DNA of 64,000 nt from an uncultured Muribaculaceae bacterium (GCA_964385795.1 CAYLPY010000002.1:47079-111078), one strand, 5' to 3'. Shown: positions 31,034-42,771, numbered from the stretch's first letter. Program-made: numbers and translations. The notes: generated by a model not told the origin, from the letters alone.

Positions 31034-34000
31034 TCATGAAAGGGTGTTCAGTATTTTGAACGCCACTGCAAGATTCGCGACGTTGCGGGAGATTATCTTC
31101 AGTTTGTTCTCGGTCTGCTTTAGTTCCACGCGCCCCTGCATATCGTTGATTCTCGACATAACCCTCTCGAAAGTGGAGGACTTGTAATACGGGGACATGG
31201 CGTTGGCCACGAAGAACGCTATCAGAAGCCCGTTCTTTACGATGACCTTCTCGAAACCGAGAGCAGCCCCACGGTTTCGTATCTTGACTACAAAGAAAAG
31301 GTTCTGAATTTCTGCAGGAAGAGGTCCGAACCTATCTTCGAGACGGGAGGCGTAGTTGTCTATCTCCTTATCCGAGGACATCGAATCTATATTCCTGTAA
31401 ATTCTTATCTTTTCGGCAGTTATATCTATATAATCATCTGGTATGAGCGCCGGCTGATCGGTTTCTACGGTGCAATCTGTCACAAACTTGGCATCACTGC
31501 CTCCTATGCTCACGCCGGTCTCCACTCCGAGTTCCTCCATAGCTTCCGAGAGAATCTTCTGGTAGGTCTCATAGCCCATCTCAGTTATGAATCCGCTCTG
31601 TTCAGCTCCGAGCAGATTGCCGGCGCCGCGGATGTCGAGATCCTGCATCGCTATATTGAAACCGCTCCCGAGATCCGAGAACTCCTCTATCGCCTTGAGT
31701 CTCCTGCGGGCTTCGTCGGTGATGCTGACAAGCGGCGGCACTATGAGGTAGCAGAACGCCTTCTTGTTCGACCTTCCCACGCGCCCGCGGAGTTGATGGA
31801 GATCGCTGAGTCCGAAATTCTGCGCCTGATTGATTATTATGGTATTGGCATTAGGGATGTCGAGACCGTTCTCTATGATGGTGGTGCAGAGCATCATGTC
31901 ATAGTCACCACGCATAAAGTCGAGCATTATTCCCTCGAGTTTCCCTGATTCCATCTGACCATGCGCCACGCAAATCTTCATGTCGGGTACGAGTCTGTGC
32001 AGAATCTCGTATATAGCCTGAAGTTCCTCAACTTTGTTGTGGAGGAAGAACAGCTGACCGCCACGGTTGAGTTCATAGTTAATGATGCTCTTTATCTCCT
32101 TCTCATCGAAGAGAATAATCTCCGTCTGGACAGGAATCCTGTTAGGAGGTGGGGTGTTGATAATGCTGAGGTCCCTTGCTCCGAGCAGAGAGAACTGCAG
32201 AGTTCTCGGAATAGGCGTTGCGGTGAGAGTTAGTGTGTCCACCGAGGATTTCATCTGGCGGAGTTTCTCCTTTGCGGATACTCCGAACTTCTGTTCCTCA
32301 TCTATGATGAGGAGTCCAAGATCTTTAAACTGATAGTCCTTGCCGAGTATCTTGTGGGTGCCTATGAGGATGTCTATCTGACCCTCGAGAAGCCTTTTCT
32401 TTATGTCGGCGAGTTCTTTCGCGGTACGCAAACGACTGACGTACTCGATTGTGCACGGCAGGTTGTGCAGTCTGTTCTTGAAGGTATTGAAATGTTGAAG
32501 TGCGAGAATGGTCGTTGGCACGAGGACGGCTACCTGCTTGCCGTCCGCAGCCGCCTTGAACGCAGCACGGATGGCTATCTCCGTCTTGCCGAATCCCACG
32601 TCGCCGCAGACGAGCCTGTCCATCGGGCAGGAATCCTCCATGTCGCGTTTGAAAGCTGCAGTCGCTGCCTCCTGGTCCGGTGTGTCATCAAACATGAACG
32701 AAGACTCGAGTTCTTCCTGCATATACGTGTCGGGGGAGAAGGCGAAACCTTTGGAAGCCCTGCGCTTGGCATAGAGTTGAATCAGTTCCTTCGCGATGTC
32801 CTTGACCTTGGACTTTGCACCGGTCTTGAGCGCACTCCATGTCTTAGAGCCTAACTTATTGATTTTAGGTGGCTCTCCATCCTTGGAGCGGAAGCGGGAA
32901 ATCTTGTTGAGCGAGTGCACGGAGACGAACACTACATCTCCGTCCTTATAGGTTATTTTGACAACCTCCTTCATCCTCCCTCGGTCGTCGCGCATCCTGA
33001 CAAGACCTCCGAATATACCCACGCCATGGTCTATGTGCACGACGTAGTCACCGACGTTGAAGGCGTTTAAGTCGTTGATGGTGAGTTGCTCGCTCTTCTC
33101 AACCGAACGGCGTATGCTGACGCGGTGGAACCTGTCGAATATCTCGTGGTCCGTGTAGCAGCATACCTTGTCGGAAGAGTCTATGAAGCCGTTATGGATA
33201 TTCTTGCCTGCCACGAACTCGGGGATGAGACCGCCATTCTGGGAAAGGATTGATTTTATCCTTTCAAGCTGCGAGGCTTTTTCGCCGAATATCAGCACTT
33301 TATATCCAGTCTCCATACGTGAGCGGATGTCCTCTGTAAGAAGTTCAAAGTTCTTGTTGAAAGCAGGCTGAGGACTTACCTCGAAGACTGCCTGGCTGTC
33401 CACCGGGACGGAGAGGGGAGTGTCTATGTAGATTTTCCTGTAAGGGCCTGTGTCTTTCACGAAAACTTTTTGTGAATACATGTCGAAGGAGTCAAGCCAC
33501 AGAATGGAATCCTTTGGAAGTATGGAGAAGAGACTCTGTCCGTCCTCGGCTCGAGTGGACACGACAGCCGAGACTATGTCGGCGTTGTCAAGTTCTCCTG
33601 TGGAAAGCTGGGTGTTGCAATCGAAAGTGTGGATACTCTCTATCTCGTTGCCCCAGAACGAAATACGGTAGGGGAAGTTGTTTGAGTAAGAGAATATGTC
33701 AACTATCGAGCCTCTGATGGCATACTGTCCTGGGGAGGACACGAAGTCAGCGCGCTCGAAATCCTTTGAGGAGAGCATCTCGACTATCTCGTCGTGGGAT
33801 ATCTCCTGCCCTCTGGAAATGTGAAGTATGGACGAGTCCATGTCCGCACTCAGAGGAATAAACTCCTCAATGGCCTCAGGATAAGTGACCACTATCGTGA
33901 GTTCCTTCCCGGCTGAGAGTATCTTTCCTATCGCGGAGGTTCTCTGGACGGCGAGAGAGGATTTGTAGTTGCTGCGCTCCACGTTTATGCCGGATTCGGG

Positions 34001-34222
34001 GAGGAAGAACACACGGTCACCTTCAACGAAGTTGTAAAGATCAGCAGCACAGTATTCTGCAGATTCAAGGGACGGCAGCAGTACGAGATGCATCCCGCTC
34101 TTCGCTACCTGCGAAAGCACAATCCAACGGGCCGACAGATACAGACCTCGGCAATATATATTTTTCTCTCCGGAAGAAATCCGTCCCTCAAGTTCTTTGC
34201 AAGACTTGGAACTTATTAACAT
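31034..34222 (-). CDS. mfd: Transcription-repair coupling factor
   Basis: GDYVVHIDHGVG, CGDVGFGKT, IDEEQKFGV, TATPIPRT, QLRGRVGR, TRCF C-terminus; ATG at 34222 preferred over the TTG at 34333. Confidence 0.96.
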   Translation of the reverse strand: MLISSKSCKELEGRISSGEKNIYCRGLYLSARWIVLSQVAKSGMHLVLLPSLESAEYCAADLYNFVEGDRVFFLPESGINVERSNYKSSLAVQRTSAIGKILSAGKELTIVVTYPEAIEEFIPLSADMDSSILHISRGQEISHDEIVEMLSSKDFERADFVSSPGQYAIRGSIVDIFSYSNNFPYRISFWGNEIESIHTFDCNTQLSTGELDNADIVSAVVSTRAEDGQSLFSILPKDSILWLDSFDMYSQKVFVKDTGPYRKIYIDTPLSVPVDSQAVFEVSPQPAFNKNFELLTEDIRSRMETGYKVLIFGEKASQLERIKSILSQNGGLIPEFVAGKNIHNGFIDSSDKVCCYTDHEIFDRFHRVSIRRSVEKSEQLTINDLNAFNVGDYVVHIDHGVGIFGGLVRMRDDRGRMKEVVKITYKDGDVVFVSVHSLNKISRFRSKDGEPPKINKLGSKTWSALKTGAKSKVKDIAKELIQLYAKRRASKGFAFSPDTYMQEELESSFMFDDTPDQEAATAAFKRDMEDSCPMDRLVCGDVGFGKTEIAIRAAFKAAADGKQVAVLVPTTILALQHFNTFKNRLHNLPCTIEYVSRLRTAKELADIKKRLLEGQIDILIGTHKILGKDYQFKDLGLLIIDEEQKFGVSAKEKLRQMKSSVDTLTLTATPIPRTLQFSLLGARDLSIINTPPPNRIPVQTEIILFDEKEIKSIINYELNRGGQLFFLHNKVEELQAIYEILHRLVPDMKICVAHGQMESGKLEGIMLDFMRGDYDMMLCTTIIENGLDIPNANTIIINQAQNFGLSDLHQLRGRVGRSNKKAFCYLIVPPLVSITDEARRRLKAIEEFSDLGSGFNIAMQDLDIRGAGNLLGAEQSGFITEMGYETYQKILSEAMEELGVETGVSIGGSDAKFVTDCTVETDQPALIPDDYIDITAEKIRIYRNIDSMSSDKEIDNYASRLEDRFGPLPAEIQNLFFVVKIRNRGAALGFEKVIVKNGLLIAFFVANAMSPYYKSSTFERVMSRINDMQGRVELKQTENKLKIISRNVANLAVAFKILNTLS

Positions 34223-34445
34223 ATTCGGCGTTTCAGATGTTGAAAAACTGTTAAAAAGCCGTTCGTACGCACCCATGTTTTTGTTGAGAACTTTCAGCCG
34301 GATGTTTTTCAACTTTTCGTCGACAGGCCGCAAATAAGGTATTCAACTTTTTTGACGTTTATTAAAGAATTAAGCTACAGACCTTTAAAGTAGTTATCAA
34401 CAATATCAACAAGCTATAATAACATTCAAATTATATAAATAAAAG
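34213..34445. other. Candidate replication origin (oriC): A/T-rich spacer with clustered DnaA-box-like 9-mers
   Basis: TTATTAACA 34213, TGTTGAAAA 34238, TGTTAAAAA 34249, TGTTGAGAA 34282, TTTTCAACT 34306, TATTCAACT 34340, TTATCAACA 34394, ATATCAACA 34403; flanking genes diverge from this point. Confidence 0.55.
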
Positions 34446-34447
34446 AC

Positions 34448-34455
34448 TATATTTG
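34448..34455 (+). promoter_or_regulatory. -7 promoter box (ruvB-sdhAB)
   Basis: TATATTTG. Confidence 0.65.
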
Positions 34456-34471
34456 TATTTCATTTAAAGCT

Positions 34472-35503
34472 ATGGCGCATTCGGAGTTTGACCCGCACGA
34501 CACGAACGAGGGCAAAGATAAGGATTTAGAGGGAATTATCCGTCCTCACGAATTGGAAGATTTCACTGGCCAAGGTGAGATTGTGTCCAATCTACGCGTT
34601 TATGTGCAGGCTGCCAAGATGCGCGGAGAAGCTTTGGACCACACGCTTTTCCATGGTCCTCCAGGACTCGGAAAGACGACTCTGGCGCATATCATAGCCA
34701 ATGAGATGGGCGTCAACATCAAAATAACTTCAGGTCCAGTTCTCGACCGCCCCGGCGATCTGGCAGGTCTGCTGACTTCTCTCGACAAAGGTGACGTGCT
34801 CTTCATAGACGAGATACACCGTCTGTCTCCGGAAGTGGAGGAGTATCTTTACTCCGCGATGGAGGACTATGTCATAGACATCATGATAGACAAAGGACCG
34901 GGAGCCCGTTCCGTGCGGATTTCCCTCAATCCATTCACGCTTGTGGGCGCTACGACGAGGGCAGGTCTGCTGACCGCGCCCCTGCGGGCACGTTTCGGCA
35001 TCAACTGTGGGCTTGAGTACTATGACACAATGGATCTTATGAAGATTATAAGGCGTAGCGCAGGAATTCTGAACGTACCAATCGATTCTGCGGCTGCCGA
35101 GGAGATTGCGCTACGCAGCCGTGGAACGCCGCGTATAGCCAACTCTCTGCTGCGGCGCGTGCGAGACTTCGCGCAGGTCAAGGGTGACGGTTGCATTGAT
35201 CTTGCGATAGCGAAGTTCGCTCTTGACAAGCTCAGGATAGATACCCGAGGACTGGATTCGGTGGACAACAAGATTCTCCGCACCATCATCGAGACTTTCA
35301 AGGGCGGTCCTGTCGGAGCTAACACCATAGCAACGGCGATAGGGGAGGATCAGGGTACTTTCGAAGAAGTTTATGAGCCTTTCCTTATAAAGGAGGGTTT
35401 TATAGTAAGGACGCAGCGGGGAAGAATTGCCACCGACCTGTCATACCGTCATCTCGGTCTCATGAAGGACAGGGGAGAAGGGAGCGAGCCGGCGCTTTTT
35501 TAA
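34472..35503 (+). CDS. ruvB: Holliday junction branch migration helicase RuvB
   Basis: [40 protein letters not shown]. Confidence 0.98.
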
Positions 35504-40486: not shown

Positions 40487-40912
40487 ATGGTACGCTACTT
40501 TACTGAGGATTCTGATTTTGTCTTCAAGCCTAAGGCTTTGAACAATAAGTGGTTGAAAATGGTTGCAGGAAGCGAGATTAAGCGTCTTGGCGCCATCAAC
40601 ATCATCTTTTGTTCGGATAACTACATCCTTGACGTCAATATGAAATATCTTCAGCATGACTACTTTACGGATATAATTACCTTCGATTACTGTGAAAAGG
40701 ATGTTCTTTCCGGGGATCTTTTCATAAGTGTGGATTCTGTCCGTGAGAACGCAGCTTTCTATAAGACAGAATTCAATGACGAACTCAACCGTGTCATCGT
40801 CCATGGTCTTCTTCACCTTATAGGTTACGATGACCATACGGATGAAGATATCAAAATCATGCGGAGCAAAGAAGATTACTATCTCTCGCTCAGAACTTCT
40901 CTCGTAGGATGA
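40487..40912 (+). CDS. ybeY: rRNA maturation RNase YbeY
   Basis: [28 protein letters not shown]. Confidence 0.96.
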
Positions 40913-42771
40913 GTTTTATTTATGATGTCATTGTCGTAGGCGGTGGACACGCCGGCTGCGAGGCTGCGATGGCGGCGGCGAATCTCGGGTCGAGAGTCCT
41001 TCTGCTTTCAGCTGATATGTCTGCCTTTGCTAAAATGTCCTGTAATCCTGCAATAGGCGGAATTGCTAAGGGTCAGATAGTTAGAGAGATAGATGCTCTT
41101 GGAGGGTATACCGGCATAGTAACTGACCGCTCTACGCTCCAGTTTAGGATGCTCAACAAGTCTAAGGGTCCTGCAATGTGGAGTCCTCGCGCGCAGTGTG
41201 ATAAAGTGCTGTTTTCACTGAATTGGCGCAAAATTCTTGAAAGTAATTGTAATATAGATATTTACGCCGATTTTGCCGTTTCTTTTCTCTTTGAGAATTT
41301 AAAAATTGTCGGTGTTCGTACAAATACCGGGGCAATTTTTAAGTCTCGGAGCGTTGTCCTTACCGCAGGAACATTCCTTTCGGGCAAAATATTCATAGGA
41401 CGCACTTCTATGACAGGTGGTAGAATAGGAGAACTGTCGTCGGAAGGTCTGACTTTGCAGCTCACTGAAAGGGGGCTTGTCTCCGGAAGAATGAAGACTG
41501 GAACTCCGCCGAGGATAGACATCTCCTCAGTAGATACTTCTTCACTGACTCCCCAGTTTGGAGATGCTGAACCGGAACGCTTTTCCTTTCTTGACTCTCC
41601 GTCGAGGATTCAGGATGGCTCGTCTTCTCAGATGCCGTGCTTTATTCTTCATACGAATGAGAAGGTCCATGATATCCTCCGCAGTGGTTTTTCTGATTCT
41701 CCTCTTTTTACAGGTCTGATTCATGGCAAAGGGCCGCGATATTGTCCGAGTATCGAGGATAAACTACGTGTCTTTCCGGAGAACAATGCTCATCAGCTCT
41801 TTCTTGAGCCGGAAGGGGAGTGGACCAACGAGTACTATCTCCAGGGGTTCTCTTCTTCTCTTCCGCTTCAAGTCCAACTTGATGCCCTCCATGCTATAAA
41901 GGGACTTGAGAACGCGAAGATATTCAAGCCTGCGTATGCGGTAGAGTACGATTATTTCGATCCTACCTGTCTTACATCTTCTCTTGAGACGAAGACTGTA
42001 GAAGGACTTTTTCTTGCAGGGCAGGTGAATGGCACCACCGGATATGAGGAGGCTGCTGCTCAAGGAATAATAGCAGGTATCAATGCTCATCGAAAGATTA
42101 ATGGGCAGGATCCTCTGATTCTCGGTCGCGATCAGGCTTATATCGGGGTTCTGATTGATGATCTCGTCACGAAGGGTGTAGATGAACCTTACCGTATGTT
42201 TACTTCCCGTGCTGAATACCGGATACTTCTTCGTCAAGATAATGCTGATTATCGTCTGACAACGCTGTCGTATTCTATCGGACTTGCTAATGAGCGTAGA
42301 TATGTTTTGACAATGCGCAAGTATGAGGAGGTGGAGTCTCTGTTGAAATATTGCGATAAGTATAAAATATCCGCTTCTTCCCTCAATCCTTTCCTTACAG
42401 AGCGTGGTTCAAATACTGTTTCAGAGTCAAAGAAAATTGCCGATATTGCCACTCGTCCTGAAATTACACTCTATGATTTGCTTCAAATAGTTCCACGTGG
42501 AACAACTGATAAGGTTATTTGCGAGAGCGTGGAAATAGCCATAAAATACAAGGGGTATATCGATCGTGAACTGCAGGCTGCAGAAAAGCTACATCGTCTT
42601 GAGAATCTCCAGATACCGGATGGATTTGATTTTGAGAAGATAAATGGTCTTTCAATTGAGTGCCGTCAGAAGTTTAAAAAATATAGCCCGCGCACAATCG
42701 CGCAGGCTATGAGGATTTCGGGCGTGTCGCCTTCTGATATTTCTGTGCTTCTCGTCTATTTCGGACGGTGA
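40909..42771 (+). CDS. mnmG: tRNA uridine-5-carboxymethylaminomethyl(34) synthesis enzyme MnmG (GidA)
   Basis: [50 protein letters not shown]. Confidence 0.98.
42489..42504. promoter_or_regulatory. parS: parS centromere-like site embedded in mnmG
   Basis: AGTTCCACGTGGAACA, 15/16 match to the bacterial parS consensus TGTTCCACGTGGAACA; perfect 14-bp palindromic core; encodes (I)VPRGT. Confidence 0.75.

Follow-up and report, generated by a model that had tools for sequence, protein, structure and literature searches.

Where does chromosome replication begin in an uncultured Bacteroidales bacterium in which the short spacer between two divergent repair genes, mfd and ruvB, is crowded with sequences resembling DnaA boxes? 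The spacer lies within the window analysed here, a 64,000-nucleotide stretch (GCA_964385795.1 CAYLPY010000002.1:47079-111078; C2:47079-111078 in our contig numbering) of a 1.65 Mb assembly in 30 contigs that is 97.5% complete and has a GC content of ~55%. The host is a gut or rumen bacterium of Cryptobacteroides-like affiliation. An earlier note, made from the sequence alone, had proposed this gap as the probable chromosomal replication origin, oriC. Support for the placement comes from the strand switch found in the genome, from the skew minima of four relatives and from the conserved boxes, and we put the probability that the mfd-ruvB spacer (34213-34471 in window coordinates) is oriC at roughly 90%, a conclusion that is well supported computationally. 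The locus is a further case of a known type of origin, not a system of a new kind.

A statistically unique cluster of DnaA-box-like 9-mers

The 259 bp from 34213 to 34471 hold eight 9-mers related to TTWTCAACA (Table 1), just as the earlier note had counted; seven of these have at most one mismatch and one has two. Boxes 2 and 3 are spaced by 11 bp, a distance not divisible by 3, which places the constraint on the DNA and not on a protein. The most conserved element of the spacer across 27 aligned species is the tandem pair formed by boxes 7 and 8 (34394-34411).

Such a density of boxes is found nowhere else in the genome and is not reproduced by chance. Dinucleotide-preserving shuffles of the 259-bp stretch gave 0.49 boxes on average and 4 at most, with 0 of 5000 shuffles reaching 7. 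Among 616 genome windows with a GC content of 0.38 or less, the next best locus had 4 boxes, and the 343 genome sites within one mismatch of TTATCAACA exceed two per 300 bp at the spacer only. A whole-genome scan for the classical TTATCCACA box found it clustered nowhere. Scored with the organism's own consensus, the spacer has the box cluster expected of an oriC, at least three boxes at ~100 bp mean spacing.

The second-best box cluster of the genome, with four sites, lies outside the window at G000:C3:74187-74224, in a 470-bp gap between a small gene resembling those of helix-turn-helix proteins and a queA-like gene. Two of the four, TTTTCCACA and TCATCAACA, stand in inverted orientation at a distance of 11 bp. 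The cluster may be a DnaA-regulated or DnaA-titrating site.

The replication strands switch in the mfd-ruvB gap

Raw cumulative GC skew is monotonic along every large contig except C2, where its minimum lies at ~70 kb (~23 kb in the window), ~10 kb to the left of the spacer at 81.4 kb, within a flat floor that extends from 45 to 85 kb. Since coding effects on skew had to be removed, we used a codon classifier, a logistic model of the 64 codon frequencies in open reading frames of at least 100 aa, with labels given by gene strand multiplied by the sign of contig skew. Contig C2 was excluded from training, and cross-validation by contig gave an area under the curve of 0.957 and an accuracy of 0.90. 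This classifier superseded both raw skew and a simple regression on skew at third codon positions (GC3), for which the 90% interval had been C2 69-89 kb.

The best change point on C2 (score 394.8) separates the gene whose end is at 34333 from ruvB at 34472; the runners-up, one gene to either side, score 393.1 and 387.8. To the left of the spacer nearly all genes score as belonging to the leftward replichore; to its right, as far as ~59 kb, nearly all score as rightward, including the minus-strand genes hflX and ruvA, into which the earlier note had followed the change in composition by eye. Of the cumulative skew that the same note had offered as a check, the raw form misses the spacer and the coding-corrected form switches at it. 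In leave-one-contig-out scoring the other contigs, including the dnaA-bearing C11, were monotonic, with the exception of an opposite switch on C3 at ~126.7 kb. It is the sole opposite switch of the assembly, raw skew maximum and classifier agree on it (C3 ~122-127 kb), and it is likely the terminus.

The boxes follow the mfd-ruvB junction among relatives

The gene mfd lies divergently upstream of ruvB in all 16 genomes of the same genus that have ruvB; 13 genomes that represent other families of the order all lack this arrangement. The same junction is carried by 29 named loci, labelled Candidatus Cryptobacteroides, 'Alistipes sp. CAG:514' or rumen or gut Bacteroidales metagenome-assembled genomes (MAGs); three of these records overlap the 16-genome set, and 45 relatives are reported here. 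Boxes accompany the junction throughout: all 29 named loci have 2-8 boxes of the A type (reading A at position 6, see below) in the 600 bp before ruvB, and all 16 same-genus junction genomes carry boxes. The prediction that the mfd-ruvB spacers of related genomes would hold the same boxes is thereby borne out, their position being kept across the 45 relatives. At 51 Bacteroidota loci without mfd upstream of ruvB (from Prevotella, Paludibacteraceae, Bacteroides, Flavobacteriia, Sphingobacteriia and others) there are mostly zero boxes and never more than 4. The boxes thus follow the mfd-ruvB junction and not ruvB.

One record with the junction, L116 (CAVFMX010000040.1), is titled 'Bulleidia sp.', a Firmicutes genus; its ruvB is 86% identical to the one described here, and a mislabelled or mixed bin is the probable explanation.

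When 27 spacers were aligned with MAFFT, conserved islands stood out from poorly conserved DNA, and the islands coincide with boxes. Along the spacer they follow one another as AcTTATCAACAT, covering the start of mfd; inverted TGTTGA(A/T)AA boxes, two or three in number and spaced by 11 bp; a further two boxes in forward orientation; the tandem AgTTaTCAAC-ATaTcAACA; a G/C gap of 3-4 bp; an A-rich run; and ACTATATTTGTA, which fits the Bacteroidetes -7 element TAnnTTTG.

Four relatives with long contigs have their minimum of raw GC skew no more than ~2 kb from the spacer. This minimum is at 418.0 kb in G023:C1 (577 kb), where the spacer is at 417.8 kb and the GC3 change point and the gene-orientation minimum coincide; at 74.0 kb in G044:C88 (spacer 74.05 kb), as a clean V; at 62.0 kb in G042:C2 (spacer 62.6 kb); and at 74 kb in G045:C2 (spacer 71.8 kb).

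The spacer motif reads A at position 6 of the DnaA box

All 8-mers were ranked, free of any prior motif, by their presence in 42 non-identical spacers from relatives, with 40 ruvB-upstream regions as controls. The top ranks were taken by TATCAACA, present in 39/42 spacers versus 0/40 controls, by TTATCAAC and TTTCAACA, and by the promoter word TATATTTG. Upstream of TC[A/C]ACA cores, where the flanks had been left unconstrained, we found T (0.72), T (0.89) and A/T (0.51/0.45), so that the DnaA-box form TTWTNCACA was reproduced. At position 6 of the box, 84% of the sites in the 42 spacers have A and 16% have C. On its sequence, the spacer motif is a DnaA box that reads A for the textbook C at position 6.

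The same repeats could instead be operators of another DNA-binding protein that co-regulates mfd and ruvB, as their setting between divergent repair genes, in both orientations and across both promoters, might suggest. We consider this very unlikely. The motif matches the DnaA-box consensus at 8 of 9 positions, unselected flanks included, and in some relatives the canonical TTATCCACA or TTTTCCACA replaces it at the same positions. The 51 other Bacteroidota loci have few or no such sites upstream of ruvB, another family has a similar cluster at a strand switch, with unrelated genes as its neighbours (see below), and operators of this kind would leave the strand switch unexplained.

The tandem boxes belong to a proposed unwinding module

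Directly after the tandem boxes the DNA is ~83% A+T (34412-34471), in keeping with the A/T run that had been pointed out there, and an A-rich tract occupies the equivalent place in all 27 aligned relatives. In these 27 species the fraction of A is 0.81-0.85 at positions 5, 8, 11, 14 and 17 after the second box, and averages 0.39 and 0.56 in the other two phases. Strong box and first triplet are separated by 12 bp in relatives and by 14 bp in this genome, and the triplet register in the window is offset by one base from that of relatives. Matching to [A/T]A[A/G] fails to separate registers across the whole A-rich tract, such trio matches being weakly discriminating.

The word TATATTTG occurs in 33/42 spacers versus 3/40 controls and matches TAnnTTTG, which we take to be the -7 element of sigma-A promoters in Bacteroidetes; it is likely the ruvB promoter. 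Four species have longer spacers, in which the A-rich module keeps with the boxes and a second TAnnTTTG adjoins ruvB; the module is therefore more than the ruvB promoter.

In the basal unwinding system one or two boxes are followed by at least three DnaA-trios (3'-NAN-5') and then by an A/T-rich element; where the boxes are in tandem, the upstream one is closer to consensus, and the spacer is at most 16 bp long with a peak at 10-13 bp (PMC8287927). Like this system, as known from B. subtilis incC and other phyla (PMC6669920, PMC8287927), the mfd-ruvB spacer has tandem boxes, a G/C gap, at least three trio-like triplets with a conserved A and an A/T tract. Its layout is suggestive of the basal unwinding system. 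Unlike B. subtilis incC, the spacer is not beside dnaA-dnaN and is not bipartite.

Most relatives conserve a palindrome-like element, aTTGATa.TCAAt, ~20 bp ahead of the tandem boxes. Its counterpart in this window (34360-34390, gaattaagctacaga) is degenerate. An accessory origin-binding protein may recognize the element.

Both the binding of DnaA to the boxes and the site of unwinding are predicted from the sequence. In the mechanism that we propose, DnaA encoded on contig C11 would bind the eight 9-mers of consensus TTWTCAACA, and the tandem pair at 34394-34411 would anchor an oligomer of ATP-DnaA, serving as the platform for filament growth. From there the oligomer would extend over the short G/C gap onto the triplets with A at every third base and would open the adjoining tract of 83% A+T, where the helicase would be loaded and from which forks would depart both ways.

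A DnaA-box cluster may also have functions other than initiation, and such clusters outside oriC are well documented (PMC2533591). The spacer could serve to titrate DnaA or to regulate genes, as E. coli datA and eight intergenic regions with stable DnaA binding in B. subtilis do, and DnaA would then perhaps control mfd and ruvB, with the true oriC nearby or in unassembled DNA; the boxes do reach into the promoters of both genes and the start codon of mfd, and raw skew in this genome has its minimum 10 kb off. We regard this as improbable, since the 97.5%-complete assembly has no comparable cluster elsewhere, the corrected strand switch falls at this very gap, the raw skew minima of four relatives lie within 2 kb of the spacer, and tandem boxes, an A at every third base and an A/T tract together make up a module of the unwinding type.

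Polarity of the switch and points against an origin

A strand switch could also be produced by a terminus or by an assembly join. The G-rich strands diverge from the spacer, as they do at the origins of nearly all bacteria. In seven genomes 57-76% of genes point away from the spacer, and so does the gene for ribosomal protein L14, which lies on the minus strand 60 kb to its left. The parS-like palindrome AGTTCCACGTGGAACA is the only site of the 1.65 Mb genome within two mismatches of the parS consensus TGTTNCACGTGAAACA; the parS that the earlier note had seen in mnmG, 8 kb away, is thus real and unique at this threshold, and mnmG/gidA is a classical origin-proximal gene. Both the parS-like site and the box cluster are on C2 and not on C3, and the same mfd-ruvB adjacency in 45 independent assemblies argues that it is not a misjoin. 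A terminus or a join is in our estimate the least probable of the readings considered here, even though parB lies on C3 (142683-142961), 16 kb beyond the opposite switch and far from the parS-like site, and even though reversing the polarity would make rpoC (G000:C4:94640-95659) co-directional with replication. Under the polarity adopted here rpoC is on the lagging strand and would be transcribed against the fork. Its orientation was dropped as a polarity check, as it conflicts with the ribosomal-protein operon and is uninformative in a genome with a leading-strand gene share of ~52%. A 16S/23S primer-site search, made for rRNA orientation, found no rRNA genes in the assembly.

The positions of parB and rpoC and the small genome-wide excess of leading-strand genes are not the only observations that weigh against oriC at the spacer. 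The raw skew minimum of this genome is displaced to the left, as described above. Only box 7 agrees with TTATCAACA in full, no box agrees fully with that of E. coli, and 1-2 spacer sites qualify when the strict E. coli box is allowed up to one mismatch; the conservation of box 1 may be partly due to its encoding the Mfd N-terminus M-L-I-S. Among the relatives, G020:C20 has a weak local minimum at 62-70 kb, 0-7 kb off the spacer at 63 kb, and shows no GC3 signal. On short or noisy contigs, the minimum is 26 kb off in G007 and, by GC3, ~13 kb off in G041, and the skew of G009 and G016 is without a V shape at the spacer. Finally, the comparison with the DnaA-trios of B. subtilis assumes that these run on the strand that carries the periodic A here.

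DnaA and the distribution of the A-type box in the order

The DnaA protein of this genome (474 aa; contig C11, L001:961-2385, minus strand) matches PF00308 at 1.7e-49 and B. subtilis DnaA (8BTG) at 1.4e-84. Its gene is not on the spacer contig C2, so that the adjacency to dnaA/dnaN used as an origin criterion is absent here, and dnaA and the spacer are on different contigs in the nine relatives, of 12 searched, for which the spacer contig is known. The region upstream of dnaA has one box only. In Bacteroidetes oriC is commonly far from dnaA (PMC4755523, citing DoriC), and for this reason the distance does not count against an origin at the spacer. The earlier note was right that no dnaA is nearby, which is not unusual in this phylum.

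We aligned this DnaA to that of B. subtilis (8BTG), numbering residues on E. coli. Base-specific contacts are reported for R399, P423, D433, H434, T435 and H439 (PMC2533591, PMC7561715). The protein keeps R399, D433, H434 and H439, and the changes are P423 to A, R432 to K and T435 to A; its domain IV reads SLATIG...GGKDHATVLHAC versus SLPEIG...GGRDHTTVLHAC in E. coli. Positions 423 and 435 have been discussed as altered-specificity candidates in Epsilonproteobacteria (PMC5043019). The motif K-D-H-A-T-V-L-H-A, which includes T435A, is present in 20 of the 21 genomes tested, covering 17 families of the order, and in those 20 genomes the residue aligned with P423 is usually A or S.

A comparable box cluster exists in another family. 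In G040 (33% GC), eight sites at C1:486,990-487,331 form the densest cluster in 200 kb, with a tandem TTATCAACA-taa-TTATCAACA and an A/T tract. This cluster lies between divergent genes unrelated to mfd and ruvB, one of them sppA-like, at the strand-corrected GC3-skew minimum (488.3 kb), and is the probable oriC of G040. In G037:C5, from another family, the skew minimum is at 22 kb and two exact boxes are at 20.6 kb in apparent coding DNA, a co-location weakened by the high box background of this 35% GC genome. Because the DnaA changes occur in 20/21 genomes and the G040 cluster sits at a strand switch, the A6 box is probably an order-wide trait and not peculiar to this lineage, contrary to the lineage-specific variant that the earlier note had supposed. 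Comparison of the sequences points to an apparent covariation that would link the A6 spelling to P423A and T435A in domain IV of DnaA.

Comparison with known origins

The origin of Prevotella intermedia OMA14 chromosome 1 was predicted from E. coli boxes, with one mismatch allowed, and a skew transition (PMC4755523). Like the Bacteroidetes predictions of DoriC and Ori-Finder in general, the mfd-ruvB spacer is an intergenic box cluster at a GC-skew transition, far from dnaA; unlike them, it has flanking genes that are confined as a pair to a Cryptobacteroides-like clade and a consensus that is itself TTWTCAACA. Both they and the present assignment are computational.

In E. coli, oriC is located between mnmG/gidA and mioC, and the unwinding element follows as an A-rich strand where the box reads TTATC-ACA. 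The spacer resembles E. coli oriC in this orientation and in being unlinked to dnaA and near gidA, with a strong box beside an A/T-rich tract that is here the proposed unwinding element, and differs from it in being without 13-mer repeats or GATC clusters, in the A at box position 6 and in its other neighbours.

Shifted box consensuses have precedents. The TTCAC core box of Epsilonproteobacteria is tied to domain-IV changes (PMC5043019), and so is the 12-mer DnaA box of Thermotoga (cited in PMC6669920). Here, as in those lineages, a shifted consensus accompanies domain-IV substitutions at base-contacting positions; unlike there, it is box position 6 that has changed, from C to A, together with P423A/S, R432K and T435A. 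In the open literature we found no report naming TTATCAACA as a Bacteroidetes DnaA box, and none mapping a Bacteroidales origin experimentally or giving binding data for a Bacteroidales DnaA.

Gene order and the extent of the spacer

Pfam searches agreed with the gene names and orientations of the earlier note, and its coordinates for the spacer were right as well. All genes from 24.8 to 34.2 kb, to the left of the spacer, are on the minus strand. To the right of ruvB follow sdhA/frdA, sdhB, hflX, a TonB-like gene, ybeY, mnmG/gidA and ruvA, with ruvB-sdhA-sdhB on the plus strand and hflX and ruvA on the minus strand. No RNA family of Rfam was matched in 34100-34600.

The mfd start is the ATG at 34222-34220 (MLISS). 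Of 32 relatives, 28 lack any in-frame ATG ahead of the conserved MLIS start (ATG-TTG-ATA-AGT), and several relatives have a stop codon at most 4 codons upstream of it. Given this conserved start, mfd begins at 34222 and the spacer proper is 34223-34471, 249 bases. An extension of mfd to 34333 was rejected, as the open frame is particular to this genome and relatives start at MLIS. That frame (34223-34333) is open for 37 codons here, with an in-frame ATG at 34276, and because of it gene callers likely over-extend mfd over three DnaA boxes.

Table 1. Features of the mfd-ruvB spacer and its surroundings, in window coordinates.
Feature	Position	Strand	Remarks
Box 1, TTATTAACA	34213..34221	+	overlaps mfd start codon; most relatives show TTATCAACA-T there
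Box 2, TTTTCAACA (plus strand reads TGTTGAAAA)	34238..34246	-	aligns with conserved inverted boxes of relatives
Box 3, TTTTTAACA	34249..34257	-	11 bp (one helical turn) from box 2; spacing kept in relatives
Box 4, TTCTCAACA	34282..34290	-	from sequence reading and relatives
Box 5, TTTTCAACT	34306..34314	+	conserved island TT.TCAACA
Box 6, TATTCAACT	34340..34348	+	weak, 2 mismatches; at relatives' conserved gTTTTCAAC position
Box 7, TTATCAACA	34394..34402	+	exact; upstream member of tandem pair
Box 8, ATATCAACA	34403..34411	+	weaker; downstream member of tandem pair
G/C gap AGC, then DnaA-trio-like triplets	34412..34431	+	triplets TAA TAA CAT TCA AAT at 34417-34431
A/T-rich tract, proposed DNA-unwinding element	34412..34447	.	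unwinding predicted from sequence
TATATTTG, candidate ruvB promoter -7 element	34448..34455	+	17 bp before ATG
mfd (transcription-repair coupling factor)	31034..34222	-	Pfam TRCF, UvrB_inter, CarD_TRCF_RID, DEAD, Helicase_C
ruvB	34472..35503	+	Pfam RuvB_N, AAA_lid_4, RuvB_C
mnmG (gidA)	40909..42771	+	Pfam GIDA, 8e-150; 6.4 kb from spacer
parS-like palindrome AGTTCCACGTGGAACA	42489..42504	.	inside mnmG, 8 kb right of spacer

Implications for the genus and the order

A base-precise origin for this uncultured gut and rumen genus is useful for coverage-based growth rates, for orienting and checking MAGs and for analyses of replichores, and it yields a testable box consensus, TTWTCAACA, together with two candidate specificity residues of DnaA. 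A broader reading, to which we give even odds, is that the specificity of Bacteroidales DnaA has shifted through the order-wide replacements P423A/S and T435A, at two of the six contacts, along with R432K, that the box has co-evolved to TTWTCAACA, and that this clade has fixed its origin between two repair genes, with the mfd start and both promoters inside the initiation complex. If this is true, tools that rely on the E. coli box would systematically under-score the origins of this large gut order.

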